Shown here: in pieces, positions 21,647-30,695 of the stretch
How the letters are laid out: every line of letters begins with the position of its first letter
How positions within the stretch are numbered: the first letter of the stretch is position 1
From: Myxococcales bacterium
GTDB taxonomy: Bacteria > Myxococcota_A > UBA9160 > UBA4427
Assembly: GCA_022563535.1 (NCBI GenBank)
Contig: JADFNE010000019.1
Span: 3,386 to 67,385, forward strand
DNA length: 64,000 nucleotides
Direction of reading: 5' to 3'
Position numbers and translations under genes: made by a program
The notes under the pieces: generated by a model
Told to the model about the DNA's origin: nothing
The model's input: the letters and a program-made list of their open reading frames with translations, nothing else
Databases searched by the model: none

Positions 21647-22870
21647 TCAGAGCAACGCTGCCAATAGTGTGCTCCACCCAACCACCTGACGCCGAGTCTC
21701 GTCTTCGAAGACAAAGCCCTGCTCGAGCAATTTGCGCTCAATTTCCGGAAGGTGGAGCGCACCCCACGGCACGATGACGTTTTTGTACTGCGGCAATGCA
21801 ATTTGGATTTGGGCCAGCAGGTGACGATTGCGCAGTTCGAGGATGTCGCGCAGGAACACCTCCGCGAGCTCGGGATGCTCGAGAACGTGGCGGTAGAAAT
21901 CTATGAACGCCAACAGGGGTTCGTCGGTGTCCCAAATGCCGGCAGCCAGCGCGAGATACTCCACGGTCTCGGGAGCGAACACGCGAGCGTCGACGTCGGC
22001 ATTGCGAAGCACCGGCCACTCTCCTGCAGCTCCGGTCACGCCGTCTGGAAACAGGTAGAAGCCGATCGGCTGCTGGGTCTGTAGCCCCAGGTTTCGAGCC
22101 AGGCGTTCGTAGGTGAGCGCACCCTCGAGTACGGCGCCCTCATCCGACACGCCTTCTTCCAACACGATCGTATTTTCACTCACAAAACTCGCGGTGAGCG
22201 CCCGATAGGACTCGTCTTCCCCCACGTGCATCATGCCCACGAGGCGCACCTCGTTTTCTCCCTGGGCGTATCGACGATCGGCCAATTGAATTCCGGAGAG
22301 GTTGACCTGCACGAAACTCTCGGTTCCCACCTCCAGCCATGTCGCGAACGAAACCACGACATAGCCGACCAGGAGCGGAACCATGACGAACAGCATCGCG
22401 GCAAAAAAGCGCAGGCTATGGCCGAGCGCAATTTGCGGACCGCCCCGGGTCGAGTCGGTCAGCAGCCAATTCTCCCCCCGATTCAAGTGACGGATTCGAA
22501 GCAGCGTCGCGGCGGCGAGTCCCAGCTGAATGGCTCCGAGCGCGGCGGGCAGTTCCCACTCGAGATCGAGCGCCAAAGCTAGTGGCGCGCCCCCACTCGC
22601 CAACCACAAGACGCTTGCGCAGAGGGTCAGCAACATTCCCATCGGAAGTCGCGCGCAGATTGCCAGTATGGGCACGCACAAAATGGCCCCCAACAAGACC
22701 AGTACAGCGACGTATCGCTGCAACGCGATTAGCGGAGGGAGTTCAATGAACAAATCGCTCGCGAGGCTGACCAAGCTGAGCACGGCATCTGCGCCGTAGG
22801 CGACAATGAACGCATTTGCGAACCAAATGGGTGGTGAGGGCGAGGATGCAGTGGATTCGGAGAGAGCCAT
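21647..22870 (-). CDS. Polytopic membrane protein with a C-terminal TraB/GumN (Tiki-like) domain
   Basis: The first ~180 aa form about 6 hydrophobic helices. These are followed by VRLVGMMHVGEDESY and VIVPWGALHLPEIERKLLEQGFVF, which are the two GxxH motifs of the TraB/GumN/Tiki family. Confidence 0.6.
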   Translation of the reverse strand: MALSESTASSPSPPIWFANAFIVAYGADAVLSLVSLASDLFIELPPLIALQRYVAVLVLLGAILCVPILAICARLPMGMLLTLCASVLWLASGGAPLALALDLEWELPAALGAIQLGLAAATLLRIRHLNRGENWLLTDSTRGGPQIALGHSLRFFAAMLFVMVPLLVGYVVVSFATWLEVGTESFVQVNLSGIQLADRRYAQGENEVRLVGMMHVGEDESYRALTASFVSENTIVLEEGVSDEGAVLEGALTYERLARNLGLQTQQPIGFYLFPDGVTGAAGEWPVLRNADVDARVFAPETVEYLALAAGIWDTDEPLLAFIDFYRHVLEHPELAEVFLRDILELRNRHLLAQIQIALPQYKNVIVPWGALHLPEIERKLLEQGFVFEDETRRQVVGWSTLLAALL

Positions 22871-22975: not shown

Positions 22976-25900
22976 CTACATCCAGTCGTTGACCAGGGTG
23001 AAGGGTGCCCAGTAGAAGGGATGTGAATAGCGTTCGCTTTCGCGCAGGGTTGTCTGAGCCTTCTTCAGAGCTTCCGCCTTGTTGAGCTCGGGCTCCTGCA
23101 GGCCGCGGTAGAAGGCGATCATCAGTTCCCGTGCCGCGGTGTCCGAGATCGACCAGAGGCTCCCCAGTGCACTGCGTGCGCCGGCACGAATCGCACTCCC
23201 GGTGAAGCCAAGCCCCGCCCGATCGTTGCCCACTGCCGTCTCGCAGGCACTCAGGACCAACAGATCCAGCGGCGCGCCATCGGCCTGGGTCATGCCAACT
23301 ACGTCGGAGAGATCGTCGAATCCGACGCGTCCCCCGTAGGTGAGCAAGAAACTCGTATCGGGATTGCCGGTGAATACAGCGTGAGTCGCAAGGTGGACAA
23401 TGCCGGGTACTTCCTGCTCGACCGCTTCTCGGATCTTGGCCAGGGTGAAGGATTCGTTCAGCAGCAGCTCGCCGCCTTCAATGGCTTGAATCTGAGCCAA
23501 CTCCTCCGTGACCGCAGCCAACTCGCTAAAGCCCTGCACACTCTCGCTCACTCCGGCCAGCACTGGGCGTCCACGTTCCGAAGCGAATTCGGGAGGCGTC
23601 AGCAACCGCAAGCTAAGTGCCGTGGCCGTCGCAAAGCGATCCCCTACGTAATAACCGTCTTCGTCACTCAGGGCGGCGAAGGGCAGGGTGCGCAGGCGCC
23701 CGTCGGGTACGAACACGAGGGTTTCGATTCCCTCCTCGTCCATCCGCTCGGCGTACGGAGCGACCAGCCACTTGTAGAGCAACTTGCCAATTGCGCGGTG
23801 CTCGGTGGTCAGCGGATTCTGTACCGCTCGGCGGAATTGATCCACGGTCTTGATCAGGCGCGTTGCCGCGACTTTGGTCGTAAAGCGCTCGATCCCCCCC
23901 GGGAGACCCACCAGCAGTTCGATGCGATCGGGCAAGGTGACGGTGTAGACCACTGCAACCTCGTCGCCCAAATTGTCGATGCCGCGACCACTTCCGCCGA
24001 CACTCGCGATGCACTCATCTTCAAAGTAGTCGCGCAGTTCGGCGCCCTTGAGCTTTTCGAGGGTGTCCCGAGCTTCTGCAATCAAGAGATCGGCAGTGTG
24101 CTGGCTCTTGACCATGCTCGCGGTGCGCAGCAACAAGTCGACGGTGTCCTGGTAGACACCTCCCACGGTCATGCGGAACGAGGCGTCGGTCGTGCCGTAG
24201 CCCTCCGATGCCACGGGTTTGGTCTCTTCGAGAATCGCGACCGCCCGTCGGTGCGCCGCCAGCGCGGGCCCGACCTGATGCTCTGACCAGAGGATCTGCC
24301 CTTCCTGCCAATGTGCGCGGTACAGCAGCTCGGGGGCATTGATGCCTTCCGCAGCGCGGCGCGCCAGACGGGTCAAGTACAACGCTTCGCTGTGGTGCTG
24401 CTCTTCGCGATAGAGAGCGCCGAGATTCAAATTCGCCAGCGCCACACTGCGCAGATCCCCGAGTTCCTCGGCTCCCTTGAGCGCCGCATCATAGGCTCCG
24501 TAGGCGCTCAACAGCGATTCCGCTCGCGCCTTTGGCGACACCGCGGCCAGTTGAGCGAAGCTGCGGCCCATGTGAATGTTGAGCGGCACGCGCTCTCGGG
24601 TCTCGCGCAAGTCTTGGGTCAGGGACATGGCCTTGTCGAGCAGCCTGCGCGAATCCGCCAGGTGACCGCTGTCTGCGGCGGCTCGGGCGGCTCCGGCGAG
24701 GGCCCGGGCTTCGTCACCCTTGCGGCCAAGCTTGCGTGCGAGCTTGGCCGAGCGCTCGAAGGCCCAGAGTGCACTCGTAAAGTCGCGGGTAGCGGCATGG
24801 CGATTGCCGAGATTGTTCAAGACCGCTGGCGCAGGGGCATTGTTGTCCGAGGCGATCACGATGTTGAGGCCGCGGGTCAATTCCTCTTCGGCCCGGACCA
24901 GTTCCCCGGTGCCGATCAACGCATTGCCGAGACTCGTACGGATTGCAGCAGTGTGTTGTTCATCGCCGAGGGGTTCAGCCAGGGCGAGCGCGCGCTCGAG
25001 ACTGCGACGCGCGCCCATGAAACGACCGTCATTCTGCTGAAGCTGAGCGTACGCGAGGAGCGCTTCACTGGCGCCCCGGGCATCCATTGCCGCTTCGAGT
25101 TCATTCACGACCAATTCAAATCCGGCAGCGGCTTCTTCGAAGCGGCCACCTCGCACCGCCACGGCCGCCGTCGCCAATGCGCGCTGGGTTCGGATGTTGC
25201 GCTCGAGTTCTTCGACGTTCGCAACCGATGGCCCAATCGCTCCAACGGGAGGAAGATCGGGACTCTGGGCCGCGGCGAGCAGTTGATCGCCTGTGGTGTC
25301 GAAGGCGATCAACCAATCTTCAGGAGATGCCGGCAAGCGCCTGCTGGTGCTGGCCAGGAACTGGCTCTTGCGGTCCCTGCCGGCGATCGATTCGCAGGTG
25401 CGGGGAACGATCGGCGCGGCCTCGGCGCTATTGGTGAAGAGGGAGACGCCGGGGACCTTTGAAGTCTTCTTCTTTTGAGCGTGTGCCTGGCTGCTGGCGG
25501 ATGCGGCGGCGATCTGCTGCTCGGCTTCTTCAATGGCCGGATCTCCGGGGGGGCCGGAACCTACCGGGGGCAGGCTCGAAGCTGTGAGTTCGGTTTCGAA
25601 GGGCTCGAGATCGGTGAAGCCAACTGGGTCGTCGCTGTTGGTGAAGATTTGCTCGAGGGTGTTGACGATTTCTGTAATTGTATTGTCGGTGGAGTCGTCT
25701 TCAGGAGGGGGCTCCGTACCGAGTCGAACGACTTCGAACGTGCCATCCAATTCGGGTGAAATACCCGATACGTCAGTTTGTAGGGTGGTGAGATCTGAAA
25801 ACTGGGCCGAGGTGAGAGTGATGTCGCCTGCGTGGGCGCCATCCACTGCGCCGGTGGAGATAGAGGCGTCCGTAACGTCCAACTGCTGCTCGGCAAAGAT

Positions 25901-28891
25901 ATCGACACTTCCGGCAATCCCGGTCTCACCCAAGCTCCCAAAGTCGATCAAGGCTCCACTCAGATCTACGAAATCCCCAGAAACAGAGAGACCGCCGGGT
26001 TTCTCAGTCGAGCCCGAGCTGCCGAAAATCGTGATGTTGGGGAGGGCGATTTCGGGAGCTTCAATCACGACGCCAGCGGTGGTTGGACCGTCAGCCGAGA
26101 TCGTAACGCTGTCGCCCGAGATCGAGATGCCTGCTTTGATCGACACAGACCCCGCCGTACCAGAGAATGAACCCGTATCGATAATAATGATGGAATTGGT
26201 TTGACCGAGACTGATCGTATCCGTCGCCTGGATATTTACGGCACCGCCAGTATCGGCAAAGAACGAGGCGGTAGAGATGTCAATGTCAAGCAGAACATCG
26301 GTCCCGAGGATCTCAACGTCGCCCACCCGAGTGGGTCCCTCGGCTGCGGCAGCTACGAAAAACTGTTCTTCGGGAAAATCGGGAATCGTGAGAATTTCCC
26401 CCGTGAAGATAGAGCCACCGCTCAAGTGGACGGTGCCGCCTCGAAACGAGACGTCACCACTGCTGTCAGACGGTCTACTGGTGGCAAGATTTCCGTTGAA
26501 CGTCAAGTTGCCAGACGCGTTGATCTGATTCCCAGACAGATCGGTTGTTACCAATGACAGCCCTGAAGTTTCAGGCCCCTGCGGGTCGAGATCGCTGGCG
26601 TCTATGACGCGACCGGGACCTCCCAACGCGATTGCGTGAAAGCCGCGGCCCTGGGTACTGATGTCGAGTGGCGCATCGAAACCGAAAGTCAGCTCGCTGG
26701 CAACGAAGACGAACACGCCGCCGAGAAAATCAGAATCGATGGGGGCCACATCGAAGCCATCGACCACGATCGACGAAAGATTGCCGTTGCGAATTTGCAC
26801 GGCTCCCACACTGACGTCCGTCAACAGGGGTGCCTCGATCGGCGCCGTCATGTCCATCAACGTAACGGAGCTGTCGAAATCGCTGAACAGTTCCAGCCGA
26901 TCCGCGGTGCTGACAATGAAGCCCTGCTTTGTGTCAATCGCGAAGTCCGGCCCGAAGAAAACTCCGTTTGAGTTTAGGAAGAACAGATCCGCGGAATCGT
27001 AGGCGCTTACAATGCTCCCATCGATTTGAGACGGCCTCGAACCTGTGATTCGCGTAATCACGCTGTCGACTTCAACGAGACTCGTCGCATTGTCGGTATA
27101 GAGTGCAGTCTCTCCAACATTCAGATCGAACTCGGAAAAGCTGTGCAACACCAGAGAGTCGTCATCTCTTTTGATGCCGTCGTCGCCGTGAATCGTGTAA
27201 GTGTTTTCAGCGTCGAGCACAAGCAGACCGGGAGTCTGGCCGGGAGTGGAATCGCGGATAATATTGCTGCCATCGAGAGTAGTTTCGACGTACGAGCCAG
27301 CGGTCCCGGATTCCGACGATACGTCGTAGATAGGGTCGGCCTCGCCATCGAAAGTCAAATCCCGGGTAACGAATTGAACCGTACCGCCATCGCTGTTATC
27401 GCCAAGCGCGGCCACTGAGCCCGTTGCGTCACTTGCGATGATCTGCTCGCTTCCGTACACGTAAATCGAACCACTAGCTTGATCGCTTCCGGACGTCGTG
27501 AGGTCGACATTAGACCCGCTAATGTCCACAACGCGCCCCTCGATCGAGACAGCCACGGGTGTACCGCTGGCGGACTTTCCATCGATCTTCGAGCCCCTGA
27601 AACTGATCGCATCCCCAGCCACCTGGATCGTGTTGGGTTCTGTGCCAGACAGCGCCGAACCGGTAAGGATCGTAATGCCGTCGGCCATGACAGATTTGGC
27701 GCCGAAGAATCCTATCGAACCCGATTGGTCGCCCGTTCTCGAACCGATGGTATTAAATGTCTGCCCACTCCCGATCGTGAGCGTGTCCTCCGCAACGACA
27801 AGGATGTCGCCCGCGCTGGCACCAAGGCTAACGGTCACAATGCTCGAATCGAGCAGGATGTCATTACCCAAAATCCGCACGTCGCCCGCGTCGTCGAAAA
27901 CCAAACCCCCGGTCGTGATGAATCCCTGGGTCGTGACAGTGCCGCCCTGAAGCAGGATGTCACCATTGCCACGGCCTCCATCCGACTGGGGATCGGTAAT
28001 CGTGCTCAGGCTGCCGGAATAGAAAACGTCTCCTTCTGTAGCGATTGCTACCCCGAGCAAAGAAGTCGTTCTTACCGAATCAATCGAGGCTGAGTTGGGG
28101 CCAGCTGCACCGGCAAAGCCCTCGACCCTACCATCGCGACCCAAACCCACGGCGATAAAACTCCGGCCATTGGTGTCGATGCTGAATCCCTCAACTGTCA
28201 ACGGATCTCCGAAGCTCACATCGCCGGCGACAAAGCTCAGTTCGGCGGCCTCTGTTCCCAGGAAACTGTCCGTTACATTGAAACCATCAACGACGATATC
28301 TCCCAGACCCGTCGGCCCGGCACCCAGAAAACCCCAGGCGTGTGGAACGGCCATGGTCAGATCCGGTACAAGCAATGGCGCTCCGGTATCGATTGTGGTT
28401 ATTGAACCGTCGAGGGTGCTGCGCATCTCGAGAAAGTCAGCCGTGCTGACGTGGAAGCCCTGCTTTACGTCGAGGGAGAAACCCGAACCGAAGAAGACGC
28501 CGTTGGGATTGACGAAGAGTAGATCGGCGTTGGGATAATCACTCTCGATCGTGCCGTCGAGTTGCGAAGAGTTGCTACCGGTAATTCGAGTGAGCACGGT
28601 CAGTGCGGCCTCGAGGCCAGCTTCGTTACTGTCCATGTAGCGAGCGGTCTCAGTGGATTTCAAACCCATCTCGCTCAGGCTGTGTACGATCAGGCTCCCG
28701 TCTGTGCTGCGGATGCCGTCTTCACCGTCGATCAAGAACACGCCTTCGATGGACTCGATGTTCCCCGCCTCTTGTCCTTCGGTGTCGTCCCGGACGATCT
28801 GAGCAGACGCGCTGGATGCAGCAAACAATCCCAACACGATGAATGACAGTACGGCTCGCCCGAGCGAGCCCGATCCATATTTGTTTAACAT
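22976..28891 (-). CDS. TpsA-type exoprotein: signal peptide, two TPS/beta-helix modules, linker, TPR repeats and a C-terminal CHAT (caspase-fold) domain
   Basis: 1971 aa. TPS motifs occur twice: LTRITGSNSSQLDGT...LLFVNPNGVFFG (aa ~95-135) and ITRITGSRPSQIDGS...LFFLNSNGVFFG (aa ~610-647). G/D/S/T-rich beta-helix repeats follow each. TPR-like helices span aa ~1230-1560. The CHAT His (IVHLATHAVF) and Cys (LLVLSACETAVG) are present. Confidence 0.9.
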   Translation of the reverse strand: MLNKYGSGSLGRAVLSFIVLGLFAASSASAQIVRDDTEGQEAGNIESIEGVFLIDGEDGIRSTDGSLIVHSLSEMGLKSTETARYMDSNEAGLEAALTVLTRITGSNSSQLDGTIESDYPNADLLFVNPNGVFFGSGFSLDVKQGFHVSTADFLEMRSTLDGSITTIDTGAPLLVPDLTMAVPHAWGFLGAGPTGLGDIVVDGFNVTDSFLGTEAAELSFVAGDVSFGDPLTVEGFSIDTNGRSFIAVGLGRDGRVEGFAGAAGPNSASIDSVRTTSLLGVAIATEGDVFYSGSLSTITDPQSDGGRGNGDILLQGGTVTTQGFITTGGLVFDDAGDVRILGNDILLDSSIVTVSLGASAGDILVVAEDTLTIGSGQTFNTIGSRTGDQSGSIGFFGAKSVMADGITILTGSALSGTEPNTIQVAGDAISFRGSKIDGKSASGTPVAVSIEGRVVDISGSNVDLTTSGSDQASGSIYVYGSEQIIASDATGSVAALGDNSDGGTVQFVTRDLTFDGEADPIYDVSSESGTAGSYVETTLDGSNIIRDSTPGQTPGLLVLDAENTYTIHGDDGIKRDDDSLVLHSFSEFDLNVGETALYTDNATSLVEVDSVITRITGSRPSQIDGSIVSAYDSADLFFLNSNGVFFGPDFAIDTKQGFIVSTADRLELFSDFDSSVTLMDMTAPIEAPLLTDVSVGAVQIRNGNLSSIVVDGFDVAPIDSDFLGGVFVFVASELTFGFDAPLDISTQGRGFHAIALGGPGRVIDASDLDPQGPETSGLSLVTTDLSGNQINASGNLTFNGNLATSRPSDSSGDVSFRGGTVHLSGGSIFTGEILTIPDFPEEQFFVAAAAEGPTRVGDVEILGTDVLLDIDISTASFFADTGGAVNIQATDTISLGQTNSIIIIDTGSFSGTAGSVSIKAGISISGDSVTISADGPTTAGVVIEAPEIALPNITIFGSSGSTEKPGGLSVSGDFVDLSGALIDFGSLGETGIAGSVDIFAEQQLDVTDASISTGAVDGAHAGDITLTSAQFSDLTTLQTDVSGISPELDGTFEVVRLGTEPPPEDDSTDNTITEIVNTLEQIFTNSDDPVGFTDLEPFETELTASSLPPVGSGPPGDPAIEEAEQQIAAASASSQAHAQKKKTSKVPGVSLFTNSAEAAPIVPRTCESIAGRDRKSQFLASTSRRLPASPEDWLIAFDTTGDQLLAAAQSPDLPPVGAIGPSVANVEELERNIRTQRALATAAVAVRGGRFEEAAAGFELVVNELEAAMDARGASEALLAYAQLQQNDGRFMGARRSLERALALAEPLGDEQHTAAIRTSLGNALIGTGELVRAEEELTRGLNIVIASDNNAPAPAVLNNLGNRHAATRDFTSALWAFERSAKLARKLGRKGDEARALAGAARAAADSGHLADSRRLLDKAMSLTQDLRETRERVPLNIHMGRSFAQLAAVSPKARAESLLSAYGAYDAALKGAEELGDLRSVALANLNLGALYREEQHHSEALYLTRLARRAAEGINAPELLYRAHWQEGQILWSEHQVGPALAAHRRAVAILEETKPVASEGYGTTDASFRMTVGGVYQDTVDLLLRTASMVKSQHTADLLIAEARDTLEKLKGAELRDYFEDECIASVGGSGRGIDNLGDEVAVVYTVTLPDRIELLVGLPGGIERFTTKVAATRLIKTVDQFRRAVQNPLTTEHRAIGKLLYKWLVAPYAERMDEEGIETLVFVPDGRLRTLPFAALSDEDGYYVGDRFATATALSLRLLTPPEFASERGRPVLAGVSESVQGFSELAAVTEELAQIQAIEGGELLLNESFTLAKIREAVEQEVPGIVHLATHAVFTGNPDTSFLLTYGGRVGFDDLSDVVGMTQADGAPLDLLVLSACETAVGNDRAGLGFTGSAIRAGARSALGSLWSISDTAARELMIAFYRGLQEPELNKAEALKKAQTTLRESERYSHPFYWAPFTLVNDWM

Positions 28892-28946: not shown

Positions 28947-30695
28947 TCATGGGAAGCGGACCTGCATCGAGAAGTGAAGGCCGTCGTCCTGCAACGCCTT
29001 TTTGTCTCCAGTCACGCCGCCAGTCTTTTCTACTTTCCCCGCCCACTCGATAGCGATTCGTACATGGCGCCAGATGTCGGCGTGGATACCGACTCCCAGG
29101 CTCACCAACCTGGCTCCCGATCCGCTCCCTGCGAAATCACGCCCATAGCCCGCATCGCAGAAGAGTCCAAGCTCCAGCCGTTCTACTGGCTCGACATGGG
29201 GCAGGGGGATTCGTAATTCCACCGAACCCACGACGCCCTGGTCCCGAACCAGGAGGTTCTCCCGGAGGCCTCGCACCGAGTTGTGTCCCCCGAGCGCAAA
29301 CTGCTCCAGTCCCAGGAGGTGCGCGTCGGCCACCTGTGCGTCAATGCGCGACTGAATTCGCAAGTCGTACCAGGGCAAGTACTCGACAGCCTGGATCTGG
29401 ATGAGGCCGCTTACAAATTTTCCGTCGGGAAATTTTTCAAGCGTCATCATGTTCTGCTGCAGCGGGGTGGCATCGAGTATGTCAAGTCCGACGCTCGCCG
29501 TAATCCTTGCTGCGAACGCCCGCCGTCTCAGGCGCAAGAGGTAGTCTCCCCCGGCGCGCAACACCGCGACCGTCGATTCCCCCTCGTTTGGATCGTCTGG
29601 GTCGATCCCCGCCGCTCCGGCCAAGAACCCACGGCCGCGTTTCCAGTCCCCCGCAAAGAACACTCGAGCCTCTTGACCGCGTTCGCGCAACACCGGCTGC
29701 CTGATGCGAAATCCATAGGCCTCGGTCTTGCTTTCGATGTCGAGGGCCTTGAGGGAATCTTCGATGATTTCACTCCACGCACGGCGCATCCAAATCTCGA
29801 GCGAAGTGTCCCAGCGATTCAGCGGCACTTCGACTCGCACATCCACATCGTGCAGTCCCTCGGCGACGGAGTACGCGGTCGACCAGGTATCCCCCCAACC
29901 CGACACGTTGCGGTGACCCGCGCGAAAGCGTCCGCGATACTCGCCAATCGACACTGGAGCGTAATTATTGAAACTGGCGCTGGCCCAATACGGAACCGCT
30001 TCATCGACCGCGATCGACAGCATGCTCTCGCCGCGTTCTTCGCCGGGAATGAGTTCGGCGGCCACCGCAGTGATCCGCGGATCCCGCTTCAAGCGGCGCA
30101 GGCTTTCGCGCAAGGTGTTTACGTTCAGCGTGCCCCCGTTAGCTTCGAGCCGCGAGGTAAAGTATCGGGGCCGTAGACGACCGTCAGTTGTGACATCGAT
30201 CGAAGTGAGCTGACCTTCAATGATCGTGATCTCCACCACCCCGTCGCGATAATCCTGCGCCGGAAGCACTGCACCCGAGCTGATGTAGCCAGCGTCGACG
30301 TACGCCCGGGTGACGCGATCGCGCGCCTCCAGGACCGTCGAGTAACGACGCTCTTCACCGAGATAGGCTTGGGTGACAACTTCGAGATCCGCGTCGGACA
30401 GCGCGAGATTGCCTGAAAAATGAAACGCCTTGATCGAGATGACTCCGCCGGAGAGCGCGCTGGCCGCGCTGTCGTCTTCCGGAATATGAATCTGGGGCAG
30501 GGTGCGACCGGGGATCGGCGCATCCTCTGCGTCCAGATCGAGCGGGGGAAGTTCAGGGCGAGTTTCCCCTGGTCCCCTGAGCAGGGGCGCGACTTGCTGC
30601 GCAAACGCAGACTCAGCTGCGAGACTCAAAAGCAAAAAAACCGCCGCTGCACCGACAACCGCCACGGTCGCAATACGAAGGCGAAGGATTGGCAT
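28947..30695 (-). CDS. ShlB/FhaC/HecB-family two-partner-secretion outer-membrane transporter (TpsB)
   Basis: The start is ATG 30695, followed by a signal peptide (MPILRLRIATVAVVGAAAVFLLLSLAAESAFA). A POTRA segment is present (IKAFHFSGNLALSDADLEVVTQAYLGEERRYSTVLEARDRVTRAYVDAGYISSGAVLPAQD...VEITIIEG). The C-terminus ends in an aromatic beta-barrel motif (FSMQVRFP). Confidence 0.9.
   Translation of the reverse strand: MPILRLRIATVAVVGAAAVFLLLSLAAESAFAQQVAPLLRGPGETRPELPPLDLDAEDAPIPGRTLPQIHIPEDDSAASALSGGVISIKAFHFSGNLALSDADLEVVTQAYLGEERRYSTVLEARDRVTRAYVDAGYISSGAVLPAQDYRDGVVEITIIEGQLTSIDVTTDGRLRPRYFTSRLEANGGTLNVNTLRESLRRLKRDPRITAVAAELIPGEERGESMLSIAVDEAVPYWASASFNNYAPVSIGEYRGRFRAGHRNVSGWGDTWSTAYSVAEGLHDVDVRVEVPLNRWDTSLEIWMRRAWSEIIEDSLKALDIESKTEAYGFRIRQPVLRERGQEARVFFAGDWKRGRGFLAGAAGIDPDDPNEGESTVAVLRAGGDYLLRLRRRAFAARITASVGLDILDATPLQQNMMTLEKFPDGKFVSGLIQIQAVEYLPWYDLRIQSRIDAQVADAHLLGLEQFALGGHNSVRGLRENLLVRDQGVVGSVELRIPLPHVEPVERLELGLFCDAGYGRDFAGSGSGARLVSLGVGIHADIWRHVRIAIEWAGKVEKTGGVTGDKKALQDDGLHFSMQVRFP

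Follow-up and report, generated by a model that had tools for sequence, protein, structure and literature searches.

Within the window, the 64,000-nucleotide stretch of Myxococcales bacterium DNA analysed here, a tpsA-like gene and a tpsB gene lie next to each other on the same strand, with tpsB directly upstream (Table 1). The tpsA-like product begins with a putative Sec signal peptide, recognized in the translation by its basic n-region, its hydrophobic stretch VLSFIVLGLFAA and an ASA/Q cleavage site; alignment places a putative signal peptide at the same position in all relatives. Two stretches of the protein match the TPS domain profile PF05860 (125.4 bits vs a cut-off of 33.5) and also TIGR01901, adhes_NPXG (92.3 bits vs a cut-off of 29.1). 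At the other end, the match to the CHAT profile PF12770 scores 198 bits vs a cut-off of 24, and the candidate catalytic residues His1833/His1837 and Cys1883 are invariant in the alignment of six relatives.

Table 1. Features of the tpsB-tpsA locus in the window (residues are those of the tpsA-like product), and TPS loci elsewhere in the same genome and in the window's order
Feature	Position	Strand	Description
tpsA-like gene	22976..28891	-	1971 aa: signal peptide, 2 x (TPS + beta-helix), linker, TPR, CHAT
Putative Sec signal peptide	28802..28891	-	Residues 1-30, ...ASSASA/QIVRD; read from translation
Module 1	27263..28798	-	Residues 32-543; TPS core 32-268, then beta-helix coils
Module 2	25712..27262	-	Residues 544-1060; internal TPS core 544-775, then beta-helix coils
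Linker	25175..25711	-	Residues 1061-1239; conserved PGVSLFT...PRTCESIAG...SPEDWLIAFD, invariant alignment columns
TPR repeat region	24212..25174	-	Residues ~1240-1560; Pfam TPR_12
CHAT caspase-fold protease domain	22991..23794	-	Residues 1700-1967; Pfam CHAT 2.2e-58
tpsB	28947..30695	-	Outer-membrane transporter, POTRA_2 + ShlB/FhaC barrel (Pfam)
Membrane-protein gene	21647..22870	-	407 aa; downstream of the tpsA-like gene, same strand
TPR-CHAT/TPS locus, window's order	G105:C7 18554-21516
TPR-CHAT/TPS locus, window's order	G068:C11 40318-43359
TPR-CHAT/TPS locus, window's order	G144:C18 873077-879356
Further TPS-domain ORF, same genome (G000)	C31 (22282-26571)
Further TPS-domain ORF, same genome (G000)	C118 (19448-20041)
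Further TPS-domain ORF, same genome (G000)	C121 (47409-48143)

The tpsB product matches the Pfam families ShlB (1.7e-24), POTRA_2 (3.2e-17) and Omp85 (8.4e-07). Its reading frame is open from 30830, and the start is likely the Met at ORF residue 46, which precedes a signal peptide. Homologues of this transporter are encoded directly upstream of three-module relatives of the passenger (64% identity at L020 and 52% at L021), and the tpsB-tpsA order is kept in the relatives examined. Downstream of the tpsA-like gene, the 407-residue membrane protein has no Pfam or NCBIfam match; it is 46% identical to the product of L020 10616-11797, which occupies the corresponding place downstream of P0004, a three-module relative, and its gene is for this reason probably in the operon. 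A Sec signal peptide, a TPS domain scoring over the curated cut-off, a TPS-like predicted fold (see below) and an adjoining tpsB gene together mark the protein as a two-partner secretion (type Vb) TpsA passenger, whose export is predicted to depend on TpsB. By its domain content, then, the locus is a tpsB-tpsA pair with a passenger ending in a predicted TPR-CHAT protease.

Comparison of residues 1-546 with residues 547-1110 by BLASTP gave one collinear alignment, of 35-496 with 547-1016, with 37% identity and 52% positives over 490 columns (E 3e-59). Each module is ~515 residues long and comprises a TPS core and ~280 residues of beta-helix. The two cores scored nearly equally against a family HMM, with 322 bits for residues 32-268 and 303 bits for residues 544-775. 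Both copies open with I[VI]RDxTxGQ, which in the first stands after the signal-peptide cleavage site, and both also have HS[FL]SE[FM], TRITGS and N[PS]NGVFFG, the last with NPNG in the first copy and NSNG in the second. Eight copies from three proteins are collinear from end to end, from I[VI]RD to GGDI.ITSA...DVS...DGT. Because the duplicated unit extends from the start of the mature protein through the last beta-helix coil, it is the whole module that was doubled, and the similarity goes beyond generic repeats.

An earlier note on this DNA had described just such a doubling of the whole TPS + beta-helix module inside one TpsA-like protein, and the collinear alignment bears it out, with coordinates that are exact (28798 is the first nucleotide of residue 32, and 25742 the last of residue 1050). 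The note had also held that the second copy retains the TPS core, and had proposed a pairwise self-alignment as the check. Run here, that alignment carries the similarity into the NPNG/ITG core, with TRITGS kept in copy 2 and NSNG in place of NPNG, in keeping with the near-equal HMM scores. Canonical TpsA proteins, as the note had pointed out, have one TPS domain, at the N-terminus, and with two cores in one chain this protein departs from them. The 37% protein identity, together with the AU test given below, rules out both a recent duplication and an assembly artefact, and a fusion of two tandem tpsA genes is unlikely, since no signal-peptide remnant precedes the internal IIRD.

Searches of PDB chains with module 2 (phmmer) and with a two-sequence profile returned nothing at E <= 1, so that fold comparison was needed. 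AlphaFold2 models were made from shallow alignments, of 7 rows for residues 31-1110 and of 8 module rows for module 2 alone. The longer model had a mean pLDDT of 77 and a pTM of 0.67, with pLDDT ~80 at the junction, and its two halves showed near-identical secondary-structure patterns. The model of module 2 alone reached a pLDDT of 83.9 and a pTM of 0.88, its first 30 residues standing at pLDDT 95-96. For both models the top PDB matches in Foldseek were TPS secretion domains, those of HMW1, EtpA, HxuA, HpmA and FHA (entries 2odl, 8cpk, 5kkd, 4i84 and 1rwr); for module 2 alone the target-normalised TM-scores were 0.50-0.66, with E-values down to 7.6e-08 (HMW1, 2odl). These models predict that the internal copy folds like a solved TPS domain.

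The same proteins, FHA (FhaB-FhaC of Bordetella pertussis), HMW1, EtpA, HxuA and HpmA, likewise have a Sec signal peptide, a PF05860 domain with an NPNG-type turn, a right-handed beta-helix (predicted here for the window protein) and an adjoining gene for a POTRA + ShlB transporter. The window protein differs from them in three respects. Where the FHA/HMW1 type has one N-terminal TPS domain, it has two that are complete, the second at residue 544; the sequence similarity of module 2 to the solved TPS domains is under detection; and the cargo is a predicted TPR-CHAT protease, whereas theirs is an adhesin, cytolysin or CDI toxin. The cargo has the same domain order, TPR then CHAT caspase-fold protease, as Csx29 of type III-E CRISPR systems. 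Unlike Csx29, it forms one chain with a signal peptide and a secretion stalk, and no CRISPR context surrounds it, its neighbours being tpsB and the membrane-protein gene, and no homology to Csx29 was detected. Among PDB chains, those with CHAT domains gave no sequence match to the window protein at E <= 1; the only matches were of its TPR region, to LGN/Pins TPR domains.

Six full-length relatives, all with the order TPS...TPR-CHAT, were found by a word-indexed search. Module number varies among relatives: one in P0008, two in P0005 and P0006, and three in P0004, P0007 and P0019, the last taken from the exhaustive search described below. A 1454-residue ORF in genome G085 also has one module, and both it and P0008 have the same TPR-CHAT cargo and the same kind of TpsB as the window. 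The family thus has a variable module array, and the doubling is no one-off event. The check on orthologues proposed in the earlier note therefore has a divided answer, in that some relatives share the duplication and others hold one or three modules.

A maximum-likelihood tree was built from 44 TPS cores. Window module 1 grouped with module 1 of P0004 (support 96/89), and also with the first modules of P0005/6 and P0019, while window module 2 grouped with module 2 of P0005/6/9 (99/94) and then with modules 2 and 3 of P0019. An AU test, for which the group was named after the tree had been seen, rejected a sister relationship between the two window modules (p 0.0023). Separate further duplications were apparent in P0004 (modules 2 and 3), P0007 (modules 1 and 3), P0019 (modules 2 and 3), P0056, P0035 and P0055. 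Since each window module groups with the same-position module of relatives, and given the AU result, the doubling must predate the split of these lineages and have been kept since; the phylogeny makes it an old duplication, common to several relatives.

A profile search of reference genome contigs with the family alignment yielded two loci only, one of them a distant TpsA from a cyanobacterium and the other a 3.5-kb piece of a MAG from the same genus, and the spread of the duplication was accordingly judged from metagenome proteins. In 193 genomes of the window's order, the window ORF was the only one with two TPS hits among the PF05860 matches listed. TPS-bearing and TPR-CHAT ORFs were frequent in the order, either fused into one (1400-2300 aa) or adjoining as separate genes (examples in Table 1), layouts which suggest that CHAT proteases and two-partner secretion are functionally linked and that the link is conserved. 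The genome of the window has TPS domains in three more ORFs (1520, 1492 and 2374 aa); the one on C31 has a single TPS domain, and its TPR-CHAT end is 40% identical to that of the window protein.

We then asked the same of proteins at large. With the two window cores as query, HMMER was run exhaustively against 1.84 billion representative proteins and gave 9095 hits, of which the best 150 were rescanned with a local HMM that demands the NPNG region. At least two true TPS cores (range 2-6) were found in 61 of the best 150 clusters, a proportion that is not a frequency, the ranking being one that favours multi-copy proteins. Two cores were present in 48 of these, three in 10, four in 2 and six in 1, and the commonest spacing between cores was 500-550 residues. 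Sources included cyanobacteria, Thermodesulfobacteriota and metagenomes; named examples are WP_261265745.1 (from the cyanobacterium Laspinema olomoucense), MDY6952714.1 and MEM6405362.1. The reiterated TPS-plus-helix architecture is, as judged from these profile matches, recurrent among environmental bacteria. The earlier note had called an internal second copy unexpected; this stands when the comparison is with canonical TpsA proteins, but not against the multi-TPS proteins found here. Annotated as filamentous hemagglutinin N-terminal domain-containing proteins, these resemble the window protein in core number and spacing; they differ in that most have other cargos and their internal copies come from separate duplications.

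A Pfam scan of 25 multi-TPS proteins found P_proprotein in 10, CHAT in 4 and a fused ShlB barrel in 1, and many were without detected cargo. P_proprotein is the proprotein-convertase P-domain (PF01483), which could be either cargo or an accessory domain; to our knowledge it is not usually linked to TpsA proteins. The largest array was in P0020, a metagenomic protein of 5727 aa, with six TPS cores at 53, 586, 1118, 1659, 2278 and 2650. P0010, P0011 and P0075 (WP_261265745.1) have one or more TPS domains together with POTRA_2 and a ShlB barrel in a single polypeptide; in P0075 two TPS cores precede the barrel, placing passenger and transporter in one chain.

Our search of papers and preprints brought up no account of internal or multiple TPS domains or of TPS domains combined with CHAT, and no experimental study of multi-TPS proteins; a 2017 review of two-partner secretion mentions neither multiple TPS domains nor TPS with CHAT (PMC5422565). 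As far as we could find, no TpsA has been described in which TPS-plus-helix modules are reiterated and the cargo is TPR-CHAT.

First and internal copies were compared for signs of different constraint. In the close family, 37 alignment columns were conserved in first and internal copies alike, and 4 in first copies only. These 4 columns (H147, T169, G187 and L189) were considered as determinants of recognition by TpsB and set aside, being weak and too few; likewise YPNA, a candidate signature of first copies, failed once P0019, P0026 and P0034 were added. In the wider set the first copy was the best-scoring one in 51 of 65 multi-copy proteins. NPxG was intact in 63/65 first copies vs 64/85 internal copies, and lost in 2/65 vs 21/85, counts taken from related, non-independent proteins that rank highest in a list biased towards multiple copies. 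The higher scores and intact NPxG of first copies fit a secretion-signal constraint acting on the first copy only. At the junction between modules, neither a conserved cleavage motif nor a signal-peptide remnant was seen in the translation or the module alignment. Together with the commoner loss of NPxG in internal copies, this leans, with regard to the three roles offered in the earlier note (second docking or re-threading point, processing site, structural cap), towards a structural or folding role for the internal domain, and away from a second obligatory signal. The existence of one-module relatives with the same cargo class and the same kind of TpsB leans the same way.

In the established model, beta-helix folding nucleated by the TPS domain drives translocation (PMC5422565). 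We favour an extension of this model, to which we would give about an even chance of being right, in which the first copy alone is the TpsB-targeting signal and internal copies are capped rod units that restart folding and lengthen the stalk. The stalk would consist of two self-contained modules, each with a TPS-fold domain as its N-terminal cap and nucleus and ~280 residues of beta-helix, and would bear the TPR-CHAT caspase-fold protease as cargo. After Sec export, only the first TPS domain would bring the chain to TpsB, at its POTRA domains, and it would then nucleate folding at the cell surface. Once module 1 was done, the second TPS domain would leave the pore and nucleate a second rod, restarting folding-driven translocation and lengthening the protease-bearing stalk. 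Copy number, 1-3 in the close family and up to 6 elsewhere, would tune stalk length through repeated duplication of the whole module.

A counter-point to a purely structural role is the conservation of internal copies, which in the close family nearly equals that of first copies. The internal TPS domain might instead be a second functional TpsB site, at which the unfolded chain re-docks on POTRA in the periplasm. Re-docking would hold or re-thread the long passenger, or would pause secretion with TPR-CHAT still periplasmic until some trigger, in a manner that can be likened to CdiA arrest or to the retained FhaB prodomain. Internal copies keep 37 of the ~41 family-conserved TPS columns; window module 2 remains a recognisable orthologue across several lineages, and NPxG is kept in 75% of internal copies from the 65 proteins. 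Moreover, POTRA domains recognise TPS domains in an extended, unfolded state (PMC5422565), a state through which the internal copy passes too. We nevertheless think a second site unlikely: window module 2 itself reads NSNG, NPxG is missing from a quarter of internal copies but from 3% of first copies, and no change was seen in the Pfam domains of the window TpsB. One-module relatives (P0008 and the G085 ORF) have the same cargo and TpsB kind, so that a second site is not required for TPR-CHAT export.

The duplication could also be neutral baggage, a product of unequal recombination fixed by drift, with its second TPS domain decaying and serving as part of the rod only. The drifted motif NSNG would agree with this, as would the longer end branch of module 2 in the tree (0.71 vs 0.29 for module 1) and the free variation of copy number among relatives. 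However, the doubling predates several lineages and yet module 2 still scores 303 bits vs 322 for module 1, the 37 shared conserved columns have been retained, and the many independent origins of this architecture speak for a benefit on which selection could act. Drift alone would not readily account for apparent retention across lineages and repeated independent origin, and we regard neutrality as quite improbable.

Least credible, and in our estimation very improbable indeed, is a processing site at the junction, where the protein's own CHAT domain or another enzyme would cut before the IIRD at residue 544, freeing module 1 and leaving a second fragment whose N-terminus mimics the mature one: every module does open with I[VI]RDxTxGQ, which in copy 1 stands after the signal-peptidase site, and a caspase-fold protease with an intact His/Cys pair is in the same protein, but the residues before IIRD are variable (GSN, GVG, DPN, GNG, GND, IPN, PSS), the junction has no signal-peptidase-like A-x-A and no hydrophobic stretch, and I[VI]RD is the first strand of the TPS fold, modelled at pLDDT 96 within the domain, which explains the conservation of the motif without cleavage.

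The present evidence amounts to no new mechanism, and domain annotations of public proteins are enough to reveal the architecture. Its interest lies in a contrast: published work treats the TPS domain as an address tag and folding nucleus that occurs once, at the N-terminus, whereas this family and a wider environmental set reiterate, and retain, the whole tag-plus-rod unit. The locus also documents, at the level of predicted domains, a caspase-fold TPR-CHAT protease as a cargo of two-partner secretion. Internal copies offer a natural system in which to separate TpsB targeting from beta-helix nucleation, because an internal copy can only nucleate unless it re-docks. A less probable reading, in our view, is a hitherto unrecognised 'multi-start' form of two-partner secretion, in which internal TPS domains would re-engage POTRA, re-nucleate folding, or both, giving staged export of very long or non-helical cargo, such as the TPR-CHAT protease here, with copy number setting the length of the stalk. 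If true, it would extend to environmental TpsA proteins with 2-6 TPS domains as a broad class.
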